DNA from: a virus | Taxonomy: Duplodnaviria > Caudoviricetes | Virus record (IMG/VR): IMGVR_UViG_3300020045_005987 | Span: 1-59,874 of that record | Strand: one strand, 5' to 3' | DNA length: 59,874 nucleotides | Part shown: positions 2,863 through 59,045 of the stretch, piece after piece | How the letters are laid out: each line of letters starts with the position of its first letter | Numbering within the stretch: position 1 is the first letter of the stretch | Program-made: the position numbers and the translations under genes | The notes under the pieces: generated by a model | The model's database searches: none | What the model saw: only the letters and a program-made list of their open reading frames with translations | What the model was told of the DNA's origin: nothing

Positions 2863-3105
2863 ATGATTGGCAAATTTGATTATTCTAGAAAACTGATGGC
2901 TCTACAAGGTTGGAGAAAATTGTTGGTTTATTGGTTGTTGACTATAAACTATGAAATGGAGATTTCCGACTTGATGATAGCTGATGTGGCTGAGTGCCGG
3001 TTGGATAAAGTCCCAACCCTCATGGAGGGTGTTATCAAGATTGCCAAACATGGAGCGATTGAAAGAATCCCCGATTGGGGATACATATACAAAACTGCAC
3101 CTTGA
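2863..3105 (+). CDS. Hypothetical protein
   Basis: ORF in gene-dense run. Confidence 0.45.
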   Translation: MIGKFDYSRKLMALQGWRKLLVYWLLTINYEMEISDLMIADVAECRLDKVPTLMEGVIKIAKHGAIERIPDWGYIYKTAP

Positions 3106-3130
3106 AATGCAGAGATTAATAACTTAGAAT
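3102..3130 (+). promoter_or_regulatory. Sigma70-type promoter of helicase
   Basis: TTGAAA-17-TAGAAT. Confidence 0.7.
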
Positions 3131-5193: not shown

Positions 5194-5222
5194 TTGAAAT
5201 GTAATGCACAATAGGCTAGAAT
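5194..5222 (+). promoter_or_regulatory. Sigma70-type promoter
   Basis: TTGAAA-17-TAGAAT with AGGC. Confidence 0.75.
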
Positions 5223-12279: not shown

Positions 12280-12308
12280 TTGACAAATAGCATCGTATCG
12301 GATAGACT
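12280..12308 (+). promoter_or_regulatory. Sigma70-type promoter of MoxR-VWA operon
   Basis: TTGACA-17-TAGACT. Confidence 0.8.
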
Positions 12309-16474: not shown

Positions 16475-16503
16475 TTGACATTCCTTGACAAATAGGCTAG
16501 ACT
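16475..16503 (+). promoter_or_regulatory. Sigma70-type promoter with upstream palindrome (16456-16469)
   Basis: TTGACA-17-TAGACT with AGGC. Confidence 0.8.
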
Positions 16504-21358: not shown

Positions 21359-21387
21359 TTGACATCATGCTGGTAATAGGATAGATT
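21359..21387 (+). promoter_or_regulatory. Sigma70-type promoter
   Basis: TTGACA-17-TAGATT with AGGA. Confidence 0.75.
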
Positions 21388-24190: not shown

Positions 24191-24219
24191 TTGAAAAATA
24201 GGATGGTATAGGTTAGAAT
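24191..24219 (+). promoter_or_regulatory. Sigma70-type promoter (palindrome at 24125-24138 upstream)
   Basis: TTGAAA-17-TAGAAT with AGGT. Confidence 0.75.
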
Positions 24220-25129: not shown

Positions 25130-25158
25130 TTGAAATGCAAGGAATTCTAGGATAGAAT
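25130..25158 (+). promoter_or_regulatory. Sigma70-type promoter
   Basis: TTGAAA-17-TAGAAT with AGGA. Confidence 0.75.
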
Positions 25159-30129: not shown

Positions 30130-30555
30130 ATGGCAAACAAGAAACTAACTATTAACGAAGTAGTAACCGCCCTAAATAACGCAAGAGGACTGAAAACTCT
30201 TGCGGCTGATGCGTTGGGAGTGACGTACAATACAATTGAGCGTTACATCAAAGCGTCTGTTACAGCACAAGAGACAATCAAGGCGGCGCGTCACAAAAGG
30301 ACAGACTTCGCCAAATCTAAACTTGACGAAGCATTGATGCGGGGCGAATCGTGGGCGATTATGTTCACACTGAAAAACAAGGTCGACCCTGACGCAGAGT
30401 TTGTTGGAGAGAGGCACGCGGTAGATAGTAATATTATCGAAATAAACCAGTCCACACCGAAGCCGGTACTCAGGCGGATTGCCGCTGGAATGTCCCCCAT
30501 GCTGGCTTTTACAGAATATGCTAGTGGAATAAACGCTGACAAATATGGTAAATAA
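30130..30555 (+). CDS. terS: Probable terminase small subunit (HTH)
   Basis: HTH plus AIMFTLK; directly upstream of TerL. Confidence 0.7.
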   Translation: MANKKLTINEVVTALNNARGLKTLAADALGVTYNTIERYIKASVTAQETIKAARHKRTDFAKSKLDEALMRGESWAIMFTLKNKVDPDAEFVGERHAVDSNIIEINQSTPKPVLRRIAAGMSPMLAFTEYASGINADKYGK

Positions 30556-32077
30556 TGTTGATTACCAGTCCAAAGCACAAGCCCTGCTTTTGCTGATGGA
30601 TGAAAGTGAAGAAAATCCATACAAGGTATTTCAGGAAAAGTATTATAACGATCCTGCTGGCTTCGTGCGGGATTGTTTTATTTGGGGCGAAAATGAAAAT
30701 GGAGCATCTGATTATCAAAATGATGTAATGGCTAATTTAGCAAAAAGTCGGCGTGTATCGCTTCGGGGACCTCACGGACTTGGGAAAACGGGGCTTGCGG
30801 CATGGCTGATATTGTGGTTTGCTCTGACCCGTGATGGTCAAGATTGGAAGATACCCTGTACTGCTTCGGCATGGAGACAGTTATCCAAGTTTCTCATGCC
30901 TGAACTCCACAAATGGGCAAGGCGATTGAAATGGGAAATTATAGGACGTGCCCCATTCAAGAATAATGTTGAACTTTTAGACTTATCCCTGAAATTAAAT
31001 ACAGGTGAAGCTTTTGCTCTTGCATCTGATAATTCAGCATTGATTGAAGGAGCACATGCGGATAATATTTTATACCTCTTTGATGAAGCAAAGACCATTC
31101 CAGATGATACATGGGACGCAGCCGAAGGCGCGTTGTCAGTCGGTAGTGCTTACATGCTCGCAATCTCCACGCCAGGCGAACCGATAGGCAGATTTTATGA
31201 AATACAATCTCATAAGACTGGATTTGAGGACTGGCATGTTATCAAGGTAACAAAAGACCAGACAATCAAAGCGGGGCGTATGAGCAGGGAATGGGCAAAT
31301 CAAAGACTTATTCAATGGGGCAATGAATCGGCTGTTTATCAAAACAGGGTTGAAGGCGAATTTGCTTCGAGTGATGAAGATACAATTATCAGCCTGGCAT
31401 GGGTTGAACGTGCCAATGAACGATGGCTTGCCAGAAAAGAAGCAGACAATTTCGGGGAGGTTACTGGACTTGGAGCCGACATTGGGCGCGGCGGTGATCC
31501 ATCCGTGATTTGTTTACAATGCAGTAATGCCATAAAGGAATTCAGGCGCATTGAAAACAAGGATGTGATGTCTATTGCGGGCTTAGTAAATGGATTATTG
31601 CAATTACACAAAAAGGCCAAAGCATCTATTGACGTTATAGGGATTGGAGCAGGAGTTGTGGACAGACTTCGAGAGGAAAAGGAATTAGCCCCGCGTATAA
31701 TCGCATTTAATGCTTCGTCACATACAGACTCAAAAGATAGGTCAGGTGAATTAGGTTTTATCAATATGCGGTCTGCTTCATGGTGGGCGGTGCGTGAGTT
31801 GTTGCAAAATGATGAAATAGACCTACCCCACGATGATGAATTAACGGGTGAATTGGTTTCTCCCAAATGGAAAGTCATGTCCGGTGGTAAAATACAAGTC
31901 GAAAGCAAGGATGATATTAAAAAACGGCTTGGACGTTCCACGAATTATGCTGATACTGTTATTCAAGTCTTTGCGCCCTCACAGAAAAAATCATTCTCTC
32001 TAAATCCCATTGCTTCACAAAGCAATTATATTTCTGGCAGTGTCTCTGATAATACTAATTCAAGACCAAAGTTTTAG
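30545..32077 (+). CDS. terL: Terminase large subunit
   Basis: GPHGLGKT, LFDEA, ISTP, GADIGRGGD, ESKDDIKKRLGRS. Confidence 0.95.
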   Translation: MVNNVDYQSKAQALLLLMDESEENPYKVFQEKYYNDPAGFVRDCFIWGENENGASDYQNDVMANLAKSRRVSLRGPHGLGKTGLAAWLILWFALTRDGQDWKIPCTASAWRQLSKFLMPELHKWARRLKWEIIGRAPFKNNVELLDLSLKLNTGEAFALASDNSALIEGAHADNILYLFDEAKTIPDDTWDAAEGALSVGSAYMLAISTPGEPIGRFYEIQSHKTGFEDWHVIKVTKDQTIKAGRMSREWANQRLIQWGNESAVYQNRVEGEFASSDEDTIISLAWVERANERWLARKEADNFGEVTGLGADIGRGGDPSVICLQCSNAIKEFRRIENKDVMSIAGLVNGLLQLHKKAKASIDVIGIGAGVVDRLREEKELAPRIIAFNASSHTDSKDRSGELGFINMRSASWWAVRELLQNDEIDLPHDDELTGELVSPKWKVMSGGKIQVESKDDIKKRLGRSTNYADTVIQVFAPSQKKSFSLNPIASQSNYISGSVSDNTNSRPKF

Positions 32078-32107: not shown

Positions 32108-33652
32108 ATGTCAAATGAAGGATTGATTTCAGATGCTCTTAGGCTTACACAGCCTGTTTTATCTCTGTCAATGGATGTGGATGACGCATTCAAAGGTTGG
32201 ATCAAATCCAGTGGTGCCAAGGTTGCTTTGTATCGAGATTATGAACGTGGATCGCATCGTGCTGTAATTACCACGCAGATGCGTAAGATGCTTCGGCTCA
32301 CTGCTGATGATTCCGGTCTGGTTGACTTCAATGATAATTACATGCAGATTGTTGTTGACAAAATGGCTGGAAGGTTGCATGTCAATGAAGTTACTCTTAG
32401 TGATACGGATCAAGATAAGGCGTGGCTATCCCCGTTATTGGAGTTCAATAATTGGGATGCATTACAGGGAACTGTTTTTCGTGGAGCAATCCGCGATGGG
32501 GATAGTTATTTGATGGTTGATCCTGAGACACTGGAATGGACAAGCGAAGCGGCGTATGATGGATTTTCTGGTGTGTTTGCCCTGTTTGATAATAATATGA
32601 ACACGCCTTATTGGGCTTGTAAGCTTTGGTCAGAGGCCAGTTCAGAGGGACAGGATGAAGTCATGCGGCTTGTGGTGTATGAGCCTGACAAAGTCAGTTA
32701 TTGGCGCGGGGAGAGTGATGGTAGTGAATTAAAGGCTGACAATGTGGTTGAAACTTCCACAATCAAAGAACCGTTTATTTTGAAGGAGGGCGAGGAATTA
32801 CCAGAGTTTATAAATGTTCGTCCGTGGCCTTTGCCGTCTCAAACAATTCCTATTATCCACTTTGTCAACAAGTATGACAACTATTCTGACAGTGGAGAAA
32901 GTGAAATTCGCCCCGGCATTCCATTGCAGGATGTGTTGAACAGAACCCTGCACAGCATGGTTATGGCTAGCGAGTTTGCCGCGTTCAATATCCTGTGGTC
33001 AAAGGGAATTGCGTTGGACGTTACTGCAATACAACCCGGTGCAGTGTTGAATCTTCTGCTCAAAGATTCCAATGGCAATGTTATTACAGATCTAACGCCA
33101 GAAGCAACTGCCTTCTTGCAAGCCGTGGCTGTTGGACAATTCACAGGGACGGACATCGGCCAGTACACAAATCAAATTGACAAGATTGTGCGCGAGATCA
33201 GTCAGGTCACACAGACCCCGATATATGGGATCACGAACCAAGGCGCTGTGTCTGGTGAGGCATTGAAACAGCTTGAAATCGGGTTGATCGGGAAGTGCGA
33301 GAGATTCCAACGTCAGAACACGGATGCCATTCGGGATTTGATCAAGTTGTCTGCCGAGATTCAAAAGACCTTCAATACTACTTACGAAGGTACTCCGCCT
33401 GAGATCAAGACTGTGGCTGTGGCATGGAAATCACCTGAAATTCTAGACGTTTCGCAACAGCTAACTGTTATTTCACAAATTCGACGCGATAATCCCGGAC
33501 TTTTCACGGATGACTTTTATCGTGCAAGGATTGGCGGATTATTAGGCATGAACCAGACGGACATCTCCAAAGAAGGGGTTGCGGCTAAAAATGAGGCGAG
33601 TTTGAACCTGCTTGCTTTGACAGGTGGGGATGGAAGCATCCCGCCTGTTTAG
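32108..33652 (+). CDS. Portal protein (SPP1-like)
   Basis: Follows TerL; N...VVD, PIIHF.N, SGEALK. Confidence 0.9.
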   Translation: MSNEGLISDALRLTQPVLSLSMDVDDAFKGWIKSSGAKVALYRDYERGSHRAVITTQMRKMLRLTADDSGLVDFNDNYMQIVVDKMAGRLHVNEVTLSDTDQDKAWLSPLLEFNNWDALQGTVFRGAIRDGDSYLMVDPETLEWTSEAAYDGFSGVFALFDNNMNTPYWACKLWSEASSEGQDEVMRLVVYEPDKVSYWRGESDGSELKADNVVETSTIKEPFILKEGEELPEFINVRPWPLPSQTIPIIHFVNKYDNYSDSGESEIRPGIPLQDVLNRTLHSMVMASEFAAFNILWSKGIALDVTAIQPGAVLNLLLKDSNGNVITDLTPEATAFLQAVAVGQFTGTDIGQYTNQIDKIVREISQVTQTPIYGITNQGAVSGEALKQLEIGLIGKCERFQRQNTDAIRDLIKLSAEIQKTFNTTYEGTPPEIKTVAVAWKSPEILDVSQQLTVISQIRRDNPGLFTDDFYRARIGGLLGMNQTDISKEGVAAKNEASLNLLALTGGDGSIPPV

Positions 33653-33761
33653 GTATAATGTGGATGTGTCGGTGACAGTCCGAGGTCTGATGGATAATTC
33701 CAGAATATGACAGGTAGATGACCCACATTCTTGATGACATAAACCCATAAGGAGTTGAAAA

Positions 33762-33979
33762 ATGTTGAGCATTGAAAATTACTACATGGAAATGTTCAAG
33801 AAGAACTCTCTTACACTTTTTGGCACAAACGACATTAACCCCGATTTGATTTGAAAAGATTAAAGGTTGTTAAAGAATCAGCTGAAGAATTTCAGTGCTT
33901 GTATTGTGGAAGCCCAAATGATATTGAGCATACTCATTGCAAGAAATGTGGTGCGCCTCGTTCGTTTGTGATAGGATAA
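33762..33979 (+). pseudogene. Frameshifted or deleted Zn-ribbon gene
   Basis: RBS+30-aa ORF, then other frame CLYCGSPN...CKKCGAP*. Confidence 0.5.
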
Positions 33980-33983
33980 TCTC

Positions 33984-34253: not shown

Positions 34254-35393
34254 ATGCCGAGTTATGTGATAGATGCCAATGTAAGAAAAAGGCTTGTTGC
34301 TGATTATGCAAAGGCGGCCACGCCCATGCTTGTTCAGATCAAGCGCATATCCACGTCACCTGCCAGTAAAATGCAGAAAGCGTTGCGTGAATTCGATCAG
34401 GAAGCGCAAGGCTTGACGGAAAAGGGGCAACCCATATCACAGGACAATTCTGTGCTACAGAACGCTCTCAGAGCTTTGGGAGAGGTTTTTTCAAGTACAG
34501 AGTCGTTGATTAAGGCCAATGATGGCGTGATTCAAGCTTCCGGGCAGAAAAATGCCCCGCCAGCGGTCACGGCAAAGGTTTTTATAAAGGCCAGCGATCA
34601 ATTGACACGGCGCGGTGTTGATCCCCTCAGTCTCAAGGGTCAGAAAGAACTTCAAAAGACAGTGGATAAATCCGGTGCAAACTGGATCATGCCCAAGGAT
34701 GCCGAGGATTTTGCCGAGGACTTTATTTCGTCTGCCGCATGGATCTCAAAGATGGAGAATTGGGGAGCGGGTTATGCACAGTTGACAGCCAATGTAATTT
34801 TGGAGGGTATTCGCAATGGAGTTGGTCCAATAGCATCCGCGTCACAGTTAAGGCAATATGCTCAGAACATTCCTGTATCAGCGGCGGAGACTCTGACACG
34901 GACATTACAGTTGACAAGTTATCGGGAAGCCAGTATTGCAATGGAACAAATGAACGGAGGATTTATTATTGGAAAGATACGCATTTGTGCCTTGCAACCT
35001 ACTTCGTGTTTGGCGTGCATTGCTCTACATGGGACCGAACTTGCCCCGGGTGAGCGAGTTGACGATCATTACAATGGCATGTGTAGTGAGTTTTATCAGG
35101 TTCCGGGTGGGGATGAATTCCCCCCACTCATGCAGGCTGATAGTACACCAGGCAATAGGCAGTTTGTGCCATTTCAGAAGGGTGAGGAGTGGTTTGCTGG
35201 ATTATCACCTGAACGTCAAGCCATGCAAGTGTCATTTGCCTCAAGTCCTGCCAAGTTGGCCGCATATCAAGATGGAGTAGAATTGAGGGAGTTTATTACG
35301 GATCACAATGATGATGTGTTTGGTCATCAGATTGTGGAGAACTCGCTTAAGGGTATTGGTCAGGAAAAGTATTATGTTCGTAATCAGCCATAG
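34254..35393 (+). CDS. MuF-like minor head protein
   Basis: RT....YR, SCLACIALHG, DHYNGMC. Confidence 0.85.
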   Translation: MPSYVIDANVRKRLVADYAKAATPMLVQIKRISTSPASKMQKALREFDQEAQGLTEKGQPISQDNSVLQNALRALGEVFSSTESLIKANDGVIQASGQKNAPPAVTAKVFIKASDQLTRRGVDPLSLKGQKELQKTVDKSGANWIMPKDAEDFAEDFISSAAWISKMENWGAGYAQLTANVILEGIRNGVGPIASASQLRQYAQNIPVSAAETLTRTLQLTSYREASIAMEQMNGGFIIGKIRICALQPTSCLACIALHGTELAPGERVDDHYNGMCSEFYQVPGGDEFPPLMQADSTPGNRQFVPFQKGEEWFAGLSPERQAMQVSFASSPAKLAAYQDGVELREFITDHNDDVFGHQIVENSLKGIGQEKYYVRNQP

Positions 35394-35404
35394 AAAGGAT
35401 CAAA

Positions 35405-35644
35405 ATGGATAAGATAGTTTGGAGAGTAACGATTACTGCTGATTTTGCCACAACACACAGAGACATGGAAGAATTCTCTTTTCTTTTTTCTACTCGAACT
35501 GTTTATGATATTACTGATGCCATAAAACAGGCGGTTGATTTCTTTGGTGAAAATACTGGTGGAAAGGAAGAATTAATTGCATCGTTTTGGGTGACCAAAG
35601 TAGAATGCCTTGGTGCTATCATGTCGGAGTTGAAGGTCAAATAG
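35405..35644 (+). CDS. Hypothetical protein
   Basis: AAGGA RBS. Confidence 0.6.
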   Translation: MDKIVWRVTITADFATTHRDMEEFSFLFSTRTVYDITDAIKQAVDFFGENTGGKEELIASFWVTKVECLGAIMSELKVK

Positions 35645-35645
35645 T

Positions 35646-36006
35646 ATGGATGTATTGAGTCATGTTGGAATATCTTTGTCTTGTTGGAAAATGTTCAAGA
35701 TTAGGTTTTGGAGGTGGTTCAATAAGATTGACAAGGCGCAAAGAATCATACTTGATGAACTGGAGGACTCCGTTGAGCACAGTCCTGATAGATGAACAAA
35801 GAATGCTCGAAGTCTGGAATGAAACTCTTGATCCAGAGAAGGTTATTGAATGGTTCAAAACTCTTTCCGGCAGACAGCAAATAGAATTGATGGATGCCAT
35901 CAAAGCCAGAGCCGATTTGTATCAGCAATTGAACAATGGTTTTGTTGATACAAGGAACGCGATCATGAACGGCATTTTGTGTGATGCAGGGAATATAGGA
36001 GCCTGA
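35646..36006 (+). other. Hypothetical gene, possibly frameshifted near 35790
   Basis: 49-aa ORF 35646-35795 overlaps a second frame that runs to 36006. Confidence 0.35.
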
Positions 36007-36024
36007 TTAATTGAGGATTAGATT

Positions 36025-36237
36025 ATGGATGAAAAAGAACATTCACAGCTTGCAAGTCAAGTGTTTGATTTTTTATATACCGCCTCTCGGCAGGAATTAA
36101 TTGATTTGGGATTTAGGCTTGGAGAAAAAGCCGATTCACTTGATCCTTATATTAAATTTATTGTTCCTCTATGTCATGGCATTAGAAATGGCACCACTTG
36201 GGATGTGCCTTTTGAAATACCAGAATTGGATGACTAA
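36025..36237 (+). CDS. Hypothetical protein
   Basis: GAGGA RBS. Confidence 0.6.
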   Translation: MDEKEHSQLASQVFDFLYTASRQELIDLGFRLGEKADSLDPYIKFIVPLCHGIRNGTTWDVPFEIPELDD

Positions 36238-36467
36238 TGAAAAAGACACTGCATGGTAAAAGGCACTTACGCGCACGCGCGCCCATGATTGCCGCCAGAA
36301 ACAGAAAACGAATGGCAAAGTTCATGCGTGGGTATGATGCTTTTTTGGTGTTTTCAAAGCAGTTGACCACTGTGCTGGTTGACATGACTGTTGCTTTTGA
36401 GAATATTGGAAAATATGCAACCCAAATTGCCAATACAATCCAGAATAAGGCTGTGTCTAATGGCTAA
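36237..36467 (+). CDS. Hypothetical protein
   Basis: TAATG coupling. Confidence 0.55.
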   Translation: MKKTLHGKRHLRARAPMIAARNRKRMAKFMRGYDAFLVFSKQLTTVLVDMTVAFENIGKYATQIANTIQNKAVSNG

Positions 36468-36630
36468 CTAGGAGCGTAAGAATGTTGATACACTTGATTA
36501 TTTGTGGTGTTCTGTTATTGCTCGGGTTGGTTGTTTACAGCTTGCTTGTTATGTCAGTAGATGATGAAGACTCATAGCGAAACCATGTTGTCGGATTTGG
36601 TAATATCTTATAGCTTCATGGAAAAGTGAG

Positions 36631-37467
36631 GTGAAATTGAGTAAAAATATTGATGTGCTTATAACGGCATTGAGTGATATGCACTCTGGTGGAACAACCG
36701 CACTGTTCCCAAACCATAAAATGGAATGGGGAAAGGCGAAAAATAGAAATCACTCTCCTAACTCTAAACAGTTGAAAATGCATGATCTGTTTATCAGGTC
36801 TGCCAAATACGCAAAAAATAATCGTGGTGGTCAAATGGTAATAGTCCACAATGGAGATGCAATTGAGGGGATTCATCATCAGACTATAGAAATTGTGTCT
36901 AATGTTTGGGACGATCATGTGGACATACATGAAACTCTGATGAATGAATTCATGAAGAAATCAGGTTTTGCAAAAAACAAAGGGGACAAGCTGTATTATA
37001 CGATTGGAACGGAATCCCACACTGGTGAAAAAGAAGAAGAAATAGCAAGACACCTAAACGCTGATGGTGTGTTTCAGCATGTCGAAATTGAAATCAATGG
37101 GCGGTTGGTTTGGTTCCTGCATCATGGGCCCTCAAAGGGACATGGAGCGAATGAAGGAAATGCCCTTCGCAACTTCCTGAGAGATATTTATTTTAACTGC
37201 CAGAAGCATAATACCCGCCCACCCGATGTTGTCTTTACAGGACATGTTCATACACCTTGTTACAACACTTTTGTGTTTGACATGCACACAATACACGGAA
37301 TTATATGTCCCTCGTTTCAGTCCAAGACGCGCTATGCTCACAGGGCGGCGCCTGTTGAACGAAACGAGGTTGGTTCGGCATTTCTAAAGATTACGGCAGG
37401 CGGGGACATAAGGACACCCTATTTTCTGAAAGAGACAAGTGAGTTACTGGACAAGGTGAAGTTATGA
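36631..37467 (+). CDS. Calcineurin-like metallophosphoesterase
   Basis: SDMHSG, GDAIEG, GTESH, HHG, GHVH. Confidence 0.85.
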   Translation: MKLSKNIDVLITALSDMHSGGTTALFPNHKMEWGKAKNRNHSPNSKQLKMHDLFIRSAKYAKNNRGGQMVIVHNGDAIEGIHHQTIEIVSNVWDDHVDIHETLMNEFMKKSGFAKNKGDKLYYTIGTESHTGEKEEEIARHLNADGVFQHVEIEINGRLVWFLHHGPSKGHGANEGNALRNFLRDIYFNCQKHNTRPPDVVFTGHVHTPCYNTFVFDMHTIHGIICPSFQSKTRYAHRAAPVERNEVGSAFLKITAGGDIRTPYFLKETSELLDKVKL

Positions 37468-37551
37468 AAATATATTACCTAACTGCGTTATTGGCTGTTC
37501 TTATAGCCGTGATGTATATATTCAAATTGAGCCAACGTGGATACGATATGT

Positions 37552-37581
37552 TTTACAAAATACCTACACATAGGCTATAAT
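37552..37581 (+). promoter_or_regulatory. Promoter for candidate ncRNA
   Basis: TTTACA-18-TATAAT with AGGC. Confidence 0.6.
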
Positions 37582-37584
37582 ATT

Positions 37585-37817
37585 TTTGAGTGAACAGTAC
37601 AGCGCTGCTGACAGAGAAGCGGTTGCAACCGCGAAGCAGTTATACAAAACAGGAATTTAGTTGCTCGACAACTTGCCTGAGACGGTGACAGGAGTTCCGT
37701 ATGGTACTCGTACAATTCCGTTCTCGTATTGTTCTCAAACCAGCGACCTTGCAAGGTTTCCAAGATGCTGAAATCACGTCAAGCGGCTGGTTGGGAGAGA
37801 CTGATCACCTCTCCCAA
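37585..37817 (+). ncRNA. Candidate ~235-nt highly structured RNA
   Basis: Nested stems gaacagtac/gtattgttc, gctgct/agcagt, ggaatt/aattcc, agttg/caact, cctg/cagg, aaccagc/gctggtt; final hairpin tgggagag/ctctccca. Confidence 0.6.
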
Positions 37818-37847
37818 ATAATGAAAAGAATTTTATGGAGTCCAAAA

Positions 37848-38051
37848 ATGTCGAACAATGAAGATACTATTTTCGAGAAACACAGGTCATTTTGGATGAC
37901 GTTGCGTGAGGCATTATTGAGTATTAATAATGAATTAGAAATTAATCTGCGAATTTTCCCAACAACTTCACAGATCCGCAAAAGCTACAAGGCTGGTCTA
38001 AAATCCAGTGATGAAACTCAGGAGATACATCCTGCCGATAAGGCCACTTGA
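37848..38051 (+). CDS. Small hypothetical protein
   Basis: GGAG then ATG 37848. Confidence 0.55.
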   Translation: MSNNEDTIFEKHRSFWMTLREALLSINNELEINLRIFPTTSQIRKSYKAGLKSSDETQEIHPADKAT

Positions 38052-38076
38052 TTTTATTGGCAAATGGTAGTATGCT
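38048..38076 (+). promoter_or_regulatory. Promoter for scaffold/capsid operon
   Basis: TTGATT-17-TATGCT; followed by GC-rich leader hairpin 38109-38148. Confidence 0.55.
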
Positions 38077-38196
38077 TTTTGTAATCGAATAACCACGGTA
38101 GTCCAACTGGAGCGCCGATCTTGACAGAAATGTCTTGGTCGGCGCTCCTTAATTTAATCGCCTCGCCAGCGTAAAAGGCGAAGGACAAATACCACA

Positions 38197-38853
38197 ATGT
38201 TGACAGAAGCTGAACTCAAAGCGATTTTGGATACACCCGAAGCCGAAAGAACGGCTGAACAGAAAAAGGCTCTTACTGACTTCTTTGCCGCCGCAGGGCG
38301 TACAACTGATCCAGATACAGCGAAGAAAGATGATAAGCGCGAGACACCTGCAACATGGGCTGAGATTTTTGAACATCCTCGGTTCAAGGAACTCACGCAA
38401 GCCGCGAAGGATGCTAAAACCCGTGCTGATGCGCTTGAAAAAGCCGCTCAGGATCAAGAACGTGAGGCTCTTGAAAAACAGCAAAACTATCAGAAGCTTT
38501 ACGAGAAGGCTCAGGCTGAGATCACAAGTTTGAAGCCTAAAGCCGAACAGCTTGACTCGATGGAAAAAACGTTGTCGTCATTATTGGACGCGGAGATCAA
38601 ATCTCTGCCCGAACAGTTTCAGGACGTTGTGCCTGATGGCTTGACCACTCAGCAAAAACTTGACTGGTTGAGCAAGAACAAAGTCAAGTTTGTGAAACCC
38701 GAAGGTTTTGACATTGGTGCTGGCAAGAATGGCGCGAAGGAAAACAAACAGAAGGCTACCGAACTCACGCCGGAAGAAAAGCAACTTGCCAGAGACTTTG
38801 GCATGACCGAGGAAGAATATTTCAAGAACAAAGACAAGGAAGTACCTGCCTAA
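38197..38853 (+). CDS. Capsid scaffolding protein
   Basis: Coiled coil; C-terminal LT.EE..LA..FGMT.EEY. Confidence 0.85.
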   Translation: MLTEAELKAILDTPEAERTAEQKKALTDFFAAAGRTTDPDTAKKDDKRETPATWAEIFEHPRFKELTQAAKDAKTRADALEKAAQDQEREALEKQQNYQKLYEKAQAEITSLKPKAEQLDSMEKTLSSLLDAEIKSLPEQFQDVVPDGLTTQQKLDWLSKNKVKFVKPEGFDIGAGKNGAKENKQKATELTPEEKQLARDFGMTEEEYFKNKDKEVPA

Positions 38854-38945
38854 CTGGCATAGCAACAAAGAACAATTCTCTGCGTCCACGATGACGTAAA
38901 ACCCGAACGAGAATAAAAGTTTACGTTTAGACAAGGAGAATAAAT

Positions 38946-39398: not shown

Positions 39399-40325
39399 AT
39401 GCCTAATCCTATGCTTTCCGTTCAATGGCCGCGTTTCATTCTGCCCATTATCCGCAAGGAATGGTATGCACGAATGGCGCTTACTGCGTCACCCGCGATG
39501 CAGTTTTTCAATATTCAATCAGCGACTAGCTCAGTTGAATATTCACAAGGTATCGGCTCTTTCGGGCTGGTGCCTGAGTATAACTCTGCTGATGCAGAGG
39601 GCAATCCTGCGGCTATCCAGTATGATAGCTTCGAGGCTTTGTACGAAACCACATTTACGCACAAGGAATATGCCAAGGGCGTATCCATTGAGCGCAAATT
39701 GTGGGATGACGATCAGCAAGGTTTGATCAAGCGCAAGGCTCAGAACTTGGGCTTCTCGTTTGGTACAACCCGCGCGTCACACGCTTCAAGCGTGTTCAAC
39801 AATGCCTTCGCAACCGTTTTGGGTGGAGATGCAAAGGTTCTTTGTGCTTCCGATCACCCAACCAACAAGAGTGGCTTGACCACTTTCAGTAACCTCGGTT
39901 CAACAGCCCTGTCCTATGAATCTGTTATCGCCGCGATTGTTGCCGGCAATGACATGAATGATGATCGCTCAAATCCTTTGCCGGTCATGTACGATGTTTT
40001 GTATGTGCCGACTGCCCTGCAAGCCAAGGCTTATGAGATCACGAAGGCTCTTGCCAAGCCCGGTGGTGCGGATAACGATGCCAATTTCCTGACCTCAAAG
40101 GGTCTGCAAGTTGTCGTTGACCCGTATCTGACCGATGCGAATAACTGGTTCATGCTTGACACAAACCTGTCCCGCTTGCACCTGATGTGGTTCAACCGTG
40201 TTCTGCCCGAAATTGCGCTTGATCCTTCCAGCGACTATAACTTGGTCGCCAAGTATCGTGGCTACATGCGTTACAGCTTCGGTTGGGACGATGCCCGCTT
40301 TATCTTTGGAGCGAATGTCACCTAA
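39399..40325 (+). CDS. Major capsid protein (Mu gpT-like family)
   Basis: DDQQG.I, GGD...LC..DHP, L.VP..L, RYSFGW.D.R...G. Confidence 0.9.
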   Translation: MPNPMLSVQWPRFILPIIRKEWYARMALTASPAMQFFNIQSATSSVEYSQGIGSFGLVPEYNSADAEGNPAAIQYDSFEALYETTFTHKEYAKGVSIERKLWDDDQQGLIKRKAQNLGFSFGTTRASHASSVFNNAFATVLGGDAKVLCASDHPTNKSGLTTFSNLGSTALSYESVIAAIVAGNDMNDDRSNPLPVMYDVLYVPTALQAKAYEITKALAKPGGADNDANFLTSKGLQVVVDPYLTDANNWFMLDTNLSRLHLMWFNRVLPEIALDPSSDYNLVAKYRGYMRYSFGWDDARFIFGANVT

Positions 40326-57565: not shown

Positions 57566-57883
57566 ATGATTGAGTTGATTGAATTGTTTTCGAATTTGTG
57601 GGTTGCCATCAGTGGCGCGACCCCGGAAGCCATTGTAAAGGCTTTGTTCGTTCTGGTTGCCATCTTTGTCCTGCGTTTGGTCAAAGTGCTTCCAGATTCA
57701 AAATGGGCACGTGCGACGAATGTGGTCATGTCGGTTCTGCTTAGTGGTATCACCAATTCAACTGCCACGCCGCAGGAAGTCGCGGTGTTGACCCTGACCA
57801 TGGCGTTCTCGTCAGGTTTATGGGATTTGATCGCGGTGATCTATGCGGCCAAGTCCGGCAAGCCTAAACCATTTTCGACCTAA
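57566..57883 (+). CDS. Probable holin (2-3 TM)
   Basis: AAGGAG; hydrophobic helices, SGLWD, basic tail. Confidence 0.65.
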   Translation: MIELIELFSNLWVAISGATPEAIVKALFVLVAIFVLRLVKVLPDSKWARATNVVMSVLLSGITNSTATPQEVAVLTLTMAFSSGLWDLIAVIYAAKSGKPKPFST

Positions 57884-57890
57884 GTTAAAC

Positions 57891-57923
57891 AAATCAGGAC
57901 ACGTCGCAAGCGTGTCCTGATTT
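57891..57923 (+). terminator. Intrinsic terminator ending late operon
   Basis: aaatcaggacacg/cgtgtcctgattt. Confidence 0.8.
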
Positions 57924-58457
57924 AGTTCATGCCAATGTAGGTACGTACTCATCTCTTTTCGGTATCTAGTGGCGAGAAGATTATAAACGAATTTAGTCCG
58001 GACTAAATAAATTGGTCCGGACATTTTCGTTAAAAACCTCTTGGAGAAAAGTTCAAGTAACTTCCCTGAACATTAGAATAACATTAGAAATATTTTGGCT
58101 GTTTTGGCTTGGATTGTTCGAACTCTCGAAACACCGGAAAACATGCTCTAAATCGCGTCAGGAACGCCGTAGCTAAACGAATCAATAAAAACCATACAAT
58201 CTATCATCCTTTAGATTTTGACGCGTCTTTAATGTAATTCTCATAATTAGTAAATTGGTCTTTCTAAACCCTTGACTTAATTTGGATTTATAAGTAAGTC
58301 CCTTGATATTGATTATAGCATTGAAGACAGATTCTCATAAAACTATTGACTTTAAATTTGACCTATATTAGAGATAACATTATAATTATTTAATAATTAT
58401 TAAATGCCCGCGACGTGGATGTCCGGGCAAATGACCCTAGTACTTGGAGGTACTAAG

Positions 58458-59042
58458 ATGAAAAAGATTATAACAAAGATTGTAAAGAATTGTGCTACAT
58501 GTGGTAATAAATTTTACGTATTCGACAACGCGACAGGTAAATTACAAAAATATTGTAGTATTGAATGTCGTAATGAAATGGCTGGTCGTCGTAATAAGAA
58601 GGGTAATTTAGTTGAAAGGAAATGCGCTAATTGTGAGGAATCATTTATTCCAAAAGTTTCGAATCAAAGATTTTGTTCAACTGATTGTAGGATCATAGAT
58701 GAAAAGAAGGGTTATTTTATTATTTATGAACGTGACCAATTTAGATGTATTTATTGTGGCAGAAGTCCAATTATAGATAATGTCTCATTGCATGTTGACC
58801 ACATAATTTCTGTAGTTGATGGTGGGAAGGATATTTCATTCAATTTAGTTACTGCTTGTAGCCAATGCAATTTATTAAAGTCTGACATTAAACTGAAACC
58901 AGAATCTATTGTACTAATTCAAAATGAAGTTAAAAGAAGAAATTTGATTTCAGGAATTAATGATTTACAAACCATAAAACTTTTTATGGGAGCAGAAAGA
59001 AGATTAGTCAAATCTCTTGACAGGAAAATCCTGACCGGATAG
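58458..59042 (+). CDS. HNH endonuclease with N-terminal Zn-finger repeats
   Basis: RD.FRC.YCG, LHVDH, GG...NLVTAC..CN..K; AT-rich. Confidence 0.9.
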   Translation: MKKIITKIVKNCATCGNKFYVFDNATGKLQKYCSIECRNEMAGRRNKKGNLVERKCANCEESFIPKVSNQRFCSTDCRIIDEKKGYFIIYERDQFRCIYCGRSPIIDNVSLHVDHIISVVDGGKDISFNLVTACSQCNLLKSDIKLKPESIVLIQNEVKRRNLISGINDLQTIKLFMGAERRLVKSLDRKILTG

Positions 59043-59045
59043 ACT
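59017..59045 (+). promoter_or_regulatory. Sigma70-type promoter
   Basis: TTGACA-17-TAGACT. Confidence 0.75.

Follow-up and report, generated by a model that had tools for sequence, protein, structure and literature searches.

Genomic setting

The window analysed here is the whole 59,874-bp stretch of DNA deposited as an IMG/VR virus record, with an estimated completeness of about 60%. All its plausible genes are on the + strand. The left half holds a replication module (O-like initiator, DnaB-type helicase, endonuclease VII, HNH and NinG nucleases, methyltransferases). The region 37581-37847 is located inside the head module (Table 1). It is preceded by a 38-aa ORF, without family match, whose ATG overlaps the stop codon of a 278-aa ORF (36631-37467) in an ATGA motif. 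The 278-aa ORF gave sub-threshold matches only, to metallophosphoesterase or exonuclease-like proteins. No close relative of its product was found in scans of viral contigs and metagenome contigs, and it appears to be an orphan accessory gene. Gaps of at least 150 nt are rare in this genome, with only 12 in 59.9 kb. The largest gap without a + strand ORF of at least 45 aa separates the portal and head-morphogenesis genes (33653-33983, 331 nt).

Relatives of the capsid protein, at 72% identity or less, were found in 71 viral loci, in 80 metagenome loci and on one 130-kb contig of an Anaerolinea genome bin. Because of this contig, the host is probably a member of Anaerolineae. In the relatives, the interval between the morphogenesis and scaffold genes is a variable slot filled with different genes. 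The corresponding slot of the window (35394-38196) has no DNA homolog among 166 fetched loci.

Table 1 Features of the head module and of the region 37581-37847 (positions in the window)
Feature	Position	Strand	Description
Large terminase (Terminase_6N)	30545-32077	+	family match
SPP1-type portal	32108-33652	+	family match
Head-morphogenesis protein	34254-35393	+	
38-aa hydrophobic small ORF	37464-37580	+	ORF list, sequence reading
Sigma-70-type promoter	37552-37581	+	TTTACA (37552-37557), 18-nt spacer, TATAAT (37576-37581); 11/12 matches
Domain 1 (predicted)	37586-37738	+	MFE -45.4 kcal/mol, z -1.76, 11/200 shuffles as good
Hairpin A	37604-37640	+	z -2.02
Palindrome GCGGTTGCAACCGC	37619-37632		perfect, 14 bp; as RNA, 5-bp stem and UGCA tetraloop
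Hairpin B	37651-37678	+	z -0.74
Hairpin C	37679-37725	+	z -1.15; contains AGGAG (37690-37694) and ATG 37701, in frame
Domain 2 (predicted)	37740-37790	+	CCAGC/GCUGG closure; z -0.68, 49/200 shuffles as good; not significant alone
Palindrome ACCTTGCAAGGT	37746-37757		perfect, 12 bp; inside domain 2; not a hairpin in MFE or centroid
GC hairpin UGGGAGAG/CUCUCCCA	37792-37816	+	9-nt loop; -13.1 kcal/mol, z -3.41, 0/200 shuffles as good
p67, 67-aa conserved small protein	37848-38051	+	GGAG at 37837-37840, 7 nt before ATG
Very strong hairpin	38109-38158	+	12 bp + 4 bp, GAAA loop; -31.9 kcal/mol, z -8.9
Conserved small hairpin and UAAAA..CGAAGGA translation-start element	38146-38198	+	covariation in 33 sequences
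Scaffold-like 218-aa ORF	38197-38853	+	named from position; without significant family match
146-aa ORF	between scaffold-like ORF and major capsid protein	+	
Mu-gpT-like major capsid protein	39399-40325	+	family match

A credible promoter of the phage's own family

The promoter-like site upstream of the region was already part of the preliminary description and is confirmed here. The 38-aa ORF ends within this site, which carries the extended -10 motif of the phage, TAGGCTATAAT, at 37571-37581. The general form of this motif, TAGGNTANANT (TAGGnTAnAnT), has 6 copies in the window, all 6 on the + strand, versus 0.93 expected. The other five copies belong to TTGAMA-17-TAGAnT promoters located 25-102 nt upstream of gene starts. 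On the + strand, 22 sigma-70-like sites reach at least 10/12 matches (about 10 expected) and 6 reach 11/12 (0.8 expected). We defined the TAGGnTAnAnT promoter family by an extended -10, a TTGAMA-like -35 at a distance of 17-18 nt, and a location on the coding strand ahead of a gene. The 37571-37581 site belongs to this family, departing from the other members in its spacer (18 instead of 17 nt) and its leader (260 instead of 25-102 nt). We consider this predicted promoter credible because it bears the phage's own extended -10 motif. Since it matches the phage's own family, transcription probably starts near 37588. The outer stem of domain 1 begins 4-5 nt past the -10 hexamer, a point that probably precedes the transcription start. 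A transcript starting near 37588 would lack most of the outermost UUUGA/UCAAA stem.

A near-consensus promoter family, TTGAMA-17-(ATAGGn)TAGAMT, is seen at 3102-3130, 5194-5222, 12280-12308, 16475-16503, 21359-21387, 24191-24219, 25130-25158 and 59017-59045. Most of these promoters are followed by a short leader with a CATCC box and a AAAGGAGA ribosome-binding site.

Start of the p67 gene

The source gene call places a 116-aa ORF at ATG 37701, behind an AGGAG located 6 nt before this codon. A HMMER scan of 1.84 billion representatives with the 116-aa reading retrieved 6 homologs of 48-89 aa. All six align solely within residues 50-109 (starting from 50-57), and five of them begin the alignment within their own first 5 residues. 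In a word-index search, the sole match of the 116-aa reading was its own entry (P0001), and a Protein Atlas search gave no usable match for p67. The coverage of residues 50-109 only, together with the GGAG ahead of ATG 37848, indicates that the conserved protein is the 67-aa one. We thus correct the gene start from 37701 to 37848. With this start, the region 37581-37847 is most likely untranslated, and the stretch is probably non-coding. Codon statistics speak neither for nor against translation of the 49-codon extension. Its codon score is 0.066, versus -0.20 and -0.26 for the other two frames, and 8.3% of simulations yield such an open frame by chance. Conditional on an open frame, its P value is 0.26, and the score is lower than that of 97% of in-frame windows from core genes.

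The p67 homologs of 14/14 loci directly adjoin or overlap the upstream ORF (gap of 9 nt or less) and have no leader. Thus, the leader is dispensable for the conserved block. We also asked whether the leader derives by decay from the ORFs located ahead of p67 in relatives, and found no similarity. The ORF immediately preceding p67 in several relatives encodes a Cys-rich small protein with a C..C..WRGP.C motif (L048:3170-3574, L029:637-1047, L059:3358-3714, L176:2367-2600). This family is absent from the window.

Predicted fold of the leader

The + strand region has an MFE of -74.7 kcal/mol, with domain 1, domain 2 and the GC hairpin as successive elements. Both domains had been proposed before and are recovered in the MFE and centroid structures. 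Domain 1 is closed by UUGA/UCAA and GAACAGUAC/GUAUUGUUC, and its three inner hairpins form a four-way junction; domain 2 has the CCAGC/GCUGG closure. The domains fold identically in contexts of 237 and 613 nt. The description of the RNA as highly structured goes too far. The z score of the whole region is only -2.14 (7/200 shuffles as good), against -2.03 for the minus strand. By GC-adjusted rank, the region is 345th of 1493 contig windows of 160 nt and 108th of 994 windows of 240 nt, and many coding windows of the contig fold better. By z score, hairpin A (-2.02) and the last hairpin (-3.41) are the only elements of note. The leader is thus best described, in these predictions, as modestly structured, with local hairpins of ordinary stability for the contig.

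The most stably folding windows of the contig are found elsewhere, at 57801-58040 (GC-adjusted z of about -4.1). Two 18-bp perfect palindromes, ATTTAGTCCGGACTAAAT and ATTTAATAATTATTAAAT, are located at 57991-58008 and 58388-58405, beside promoter-like sites in a 227-nt gap. This area may be a regulatory or origin-like region.

The hairpin that ends the predicted fold had been called terminator-like. Its tail, AAAUAAUG, is A-rich and takes the place of a U tract. A terminator scan made no + strand call at this hairpin, and no canonical + strand terminator was found between 37581 and 37848. Because of the missing U tract, the hairpin is not a canonical intrinsic (Rho-independent) terminator; the hairpin itself is significant. 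A discrete RNA of ~235 nt, as first proposed, is not supported, as no terminator was found ahead of the next gene. The first strong hairpin with a U-rich tail past the promoter is at 38109-38148, 3' of p67, and is followed by UUAAUUUAAU. The hairpin 38109-38158 is likely to be the 3' end or an attenuator of the unit.

Twin TTGCAA palindromes

Two perfect TTGCAA-centred palindromes had been described as a pair of hairpins. Their positions and perfection are exact, but only the first forms a hairpin in the MFE and centroid structures. The 59.9 kb contain only 7 perfect palindromes of at least 12 bp, these two included. Likewise, of 44 TTGCAA sites, only these 2 have at least 3 flanking complementary pairs, versus 0.69 expected. 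Their centres are 126 bp apart, or about 12 helical turns, and their half-sites have nothing but the TTGCAA core in common. The relatives have 13 TTGCAA palindromes among 377 TTGCAA sites, none of them at the p67 leader position. The pair is clearly non-random and hints at a specific partner, which a generic leader does not explain. The proposal that the two loops kiss in a pRNA-like manner fares poorly. The loops are 4-nt tetraloops, one alone forms in the predicted fold, and Rfam gives no pRNA match. Tetraloops are generally too small for stable kissing.

Search for relatives of the leader

The impression that the RNA matches no known family was borne out in Rfam. Rfam 15 gave 0 matches at the gathering threshold for the whole window, and the window contains no tRNA or tmRNA. 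With E values up to 10, the interval 37400-37950 gave 5 chance-level matches, the best being Mu-gpT-DE with 15.6 bits for a gathering threshold of 49. A homolog search, suggested along with the preliminary description, found nothing in any collection searched. The leader had no blastn match in a phage database and 0 matches by blastn and nhmmer in 71, then 166 fetched loci; tblastx returned nothing below an E value of 0.2. A single-sequence covariance model (R1) run on 175 loci plus the window found itself and otherwise fragments with E values of at least 0.6, and gave 0 matches in 5 whole related virus records. BLAST against 401 Anaerolineae genomes yielded 2 short chance-level matches, and two Anaerolinea-type genomes yielded chance-level matches only.

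Pattern scans led to the same picture. The two-palindrome pattern occurs in 2 stretches of viral contigs and 27 of genome contigs, the domain-1 closing-stem pattern in 48 stretches of viral contigs, and the hairpin A 20-mer in 4 stretches of genome contigs; none shows similarity beyond the pattern. A scan of viral contigs by the scaffold-like protein found nothing. Scans by the capsid protein found 71 + 3 + 80 loci; identity was 72% at most, and the leader element was absent throughout. On these searches, the leader is a single-copy orphan element.

A conserved module before the scaffold gene

Downstream of p67, the window shares with its relatives a module (38057-38198) in which an extended -10 promoter and a leader of 24-119 nt are followed by a long hairpin with its T run and by the gene. 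Examples are found in L116:602-747, L153:895-1037, L031:3850-3996 and L035:3551-3688, and the module leader of relatives often has a TGAATAA..GGCAAAG box. At the position of the window hairpin 38109-38158, relatives carry canonical terminators. Among 55 unique scaffold-gene upstream regions, 42 have a terminator-like hairpin, a count from a script that missed the window's own hairpin with its interrupted T run. Of these 42 regions, 30 also have an extended -10 or TATAAT promoter ahead of the hairpin, at a distance of 24-119 nt. An 11-sequence alignment shows compensatory changes in 12/13 predicted pairs. Rfam has no family for the module elements in 17 related loci. The module resembles a promoter-proximal terminator/attenuator or a small RNA gene.

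A 5-bp hairpin, with a loop that is usually CGUU, separates the terminator from the scaffold ATG and is followed by UAAAACUCGAAAGGA. In an alignment of 33 sequences (A3), 87.9% of the cells of this hairpin are paired, versus 64.2% in shuffles, and 43 cells have double changes, versus 16; neither value was reached by any of 500 shuffles. Slid controls gave 25-47% paired. A covariance model of the element (R2) scores 30.6 bits at 38146-38198, by construction, as the window is in the seed alignment. It finds a second copy before the 146-aa gene (38870-38918, E value 0.006) and no match in the leader region 37581-37847. One related locus (L004) has two tandem copies of the element. The element is a candidate for either a translational operator or a processing site.

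Dozens of related uncultivated phages (relatives of prophages in Anaerolineae genome bins) share this promoter-proximal terminator and covarying hairpin. The shared module makes late-gene control accessible to tests in a phage group without genetics, and is in this respect more useful than the leader.

Interpretation of the region 37581-37847

We give roughly an even chance to a reading in which 37581-37847 belongs to a small transcription unit within the head module and forms its untranslated leader of ~260 nt. The unit would be transcribed by the host RNA polymerase from a promoter of the TAGGnTAnAnT type, with a start near 37588, and would continue through the leader and p67 to the strong hairpin with its U-rich tail. 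A transcript from the 37552 promoter would run into p67 and stop, if anywhere, at 38109-38148. This is the simplest reading because no terminator is met before the end of p67. In this reading, the sequence features, the promoter motif family, the p67 start and the lack of both homologs and a terminator ahead of p67 are shown, whereas we infer where the transcript starts and ends and what the fold may do. The likeliest roles of the leader would be generic: protection of the mRNA 5' end, spacing or modulation of p67 translation. Hairpin C would mask the alternative AGGAG/ATG at 37701. Several observations go against the leader reading. The domains keep their fold in the short and the long context, and the non-random palindrome pair hints at a specific partner. 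A length of 260 nt is unusual beside the leaders of the other TAGG-type promoters, and the frame from 37701 is open behind a strong AGGAG, so that part of the region could be translated.

If the start at 37701 were used, a 116-aa isoform of p67 would be made, the leader would be reduced to 37581-37700 and the structure downstream would be incidental. The well-spaced AGGAG, the frame open into p67, the source gene call, a codon score above those of the other two frames and the low rate of chance openness all argue for this isoform. We nevertheless find it unlikely: residues 1-49 are covered by 0/6 homologs and 5/6 start where ATG 37848 lies, the codon score has little weight once openness is given and falls below most core-gene windows, and both AGGAG and ATG are paired inside predicted hairpin C. 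The preliminary description had favoured a novel phage ncRNA. In this reading, a stand-alone structured RNA of ~230 nt, released by processing or by non-canonical termination at 37792-37816, would act in trans as a decoy, regulator or oligomer. What stands of it is the credible promoter, the probable lack of coding capacity given by homolog mapping, and the absence of an Rfam family; a modular fold stable to context, the low z score of the terminal hairpin and two palindromes able to form hairpins with an identical UUGCAA apex are also consistent with it. What does not stand is the terminator and the exceptional structure. The last hairpin lacks a U tract, whereas relatives and this phage use canonical terminators, the fold is ordinary for the contig and equalled by the minus strand, domain 2 is not significant, homologs are missing from every collection searched and the tetraloops are small for kissing. 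A stand-alone RNA is therefore improbable in our view.

Control could also act at the DNA level, the TTGCAA palindromes being operators for a dimeric protein that gates the promoter or blocks elongation, a possibility compatible with a leader. The rarity of such palindromes in the window argues for it, as does the fact that both strands fold equally well. Against it, the half-sites match only in the core, no regulator was found nearby, the TTGCAA palindromes of relatives are absent from the p67 leader position and both sites are downstream of the promoter; we hold it to be very unlikely. The probability is similarly small that the stretch has no function and is a remnant of recombination at a junction in the hypervariable morphogenesis/scaffold slot, folding as its composition predicts. 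The slot has no DNA homolog in the 166 loci, different genes occupy it in relatives and the fold rank is ordinary, all of which would fit. However, the promoter motif belongs to the phage's own family, the palindrome pair is non-random, and phages rarely keep a 267-nt spacer, as the scarcity of gaps in this genome illustrates. Finally, p67 homologs are encoded immediately upstream of the scaffold/capsid promoter-leader-terminator module in 14/14 loci. A more speculative scheme, to which we give only a slim chance, would have an orphan cis-regulatory RNA or ncRNA whose two hairpins, identical in their UUGCAA apex, bind a common factor (a protein of phage or host) or each other and set the level of p67, with p67 in turn regulating the scaffold/capsid module. 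Such a two-tier late-gene switch, if true, would be new in phages related to prophages in Anaerolineae genome bins, and a twin-hairpin leader, if functional, would be a new phage regulatory RNA. As an untranslated leader, the region is of local interest for the annotation of an uncultivated phage, to which it adds a promoter.

Comparison with known systems

Several classes of structured RNA were compared with the leader. ToxI-like RNAs of type III toxin-antitoxin systems are recognised by tandem direct repeats of ~30-40 nt immediately upstream of an endoribonuclease toxin gene. The interval 37000-38400 has 0 tandem repeats and the flanking ORFs have no match to a toxin family, which argues against the antitoxin role once suggested. 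A retron msr-msd ncRNA was rejected as well. Closing inverted repeats are present, the neighbours are the 38-aa and 67-aa ORFs, and no reverse transcriptase match was obtained among 35 window ORFs scanned, at the thresholds used. Looked up as a possible RNA anti-CRISPR (a solitary CRISPR-repeat mimic), the hairpin A 20-mer gave 4 single non-arrayed matches in unrelated taxa, and the 401 Anaerolineae genomes yielded 2 single short matches at chance level, by exact-match and BLAST searches that would miss diverged repeats. As for riboswitch or attenuator features, Rfam shows no known aptamer and the leader has no terminator. In the 613-nt fold, domains 1-2 are not predicted to pair with the ribosome-binding site of p67.

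The packaging RNA (pRNA) of the phi29 family (Rfam RF00044) is also a phage-encoded multi-helix RNA near packaging and head genes, with oligomerisation by loop-loop pairing as a further proposed parallel. The leader differs from it in having no Rfam match even at E values up to 10 and no conservation that we could find, and this phage has a classical large terminase (Terminase_6N) with an SPP1-type portal. A pRNA-like identity is thus rejected. The lambda nut/boxB and HK022 put sites are hairpin RNAs, made close to the promoter, through which RNA polymerase comes to ignore terminators. Here too, hairpins follow a promoter and precede a strong terminator-like hairpin that comes before late structural genes. 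The resemblance is one of layout only, with no sequence or family match and no antiterminator protein found.

In lambda, the PR'-6S RNA-tR' arrangement combines a late promoter with a promoter-proximal terminator. The module before the scaffold gene is similar in its succession of promoter, hairpin with T run and first scaffold/capsid gene, seen in 30/55 regions. It differs in that no Q-like protein was found, in its position within the head module, where it comes behind the terminase and portal genes, and in the addition of the covarying 5-bp hairpin and UAAAACUCGAAAGGA at the ribosome-binding site.

The unit that contains the leader can also be compared with the moron-type or internal units of phage structural operons, which are promoter-gene-terminator cassettes as in lambdoid phages. 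Like them, it combines a small gene with a sigma-70-type promoter of its own and with a strong hairpin downstream, among head genes of the same direction, and it occupies a slot that is variable among relatives. Unlike them, p67 is kept in 14 related loci without the promoter or leader of the window, and the downstream hairpin is part of the conserved module rather than of a cassette. Novelty at this locus is thus limited to the promoter and its 260-nt leader.
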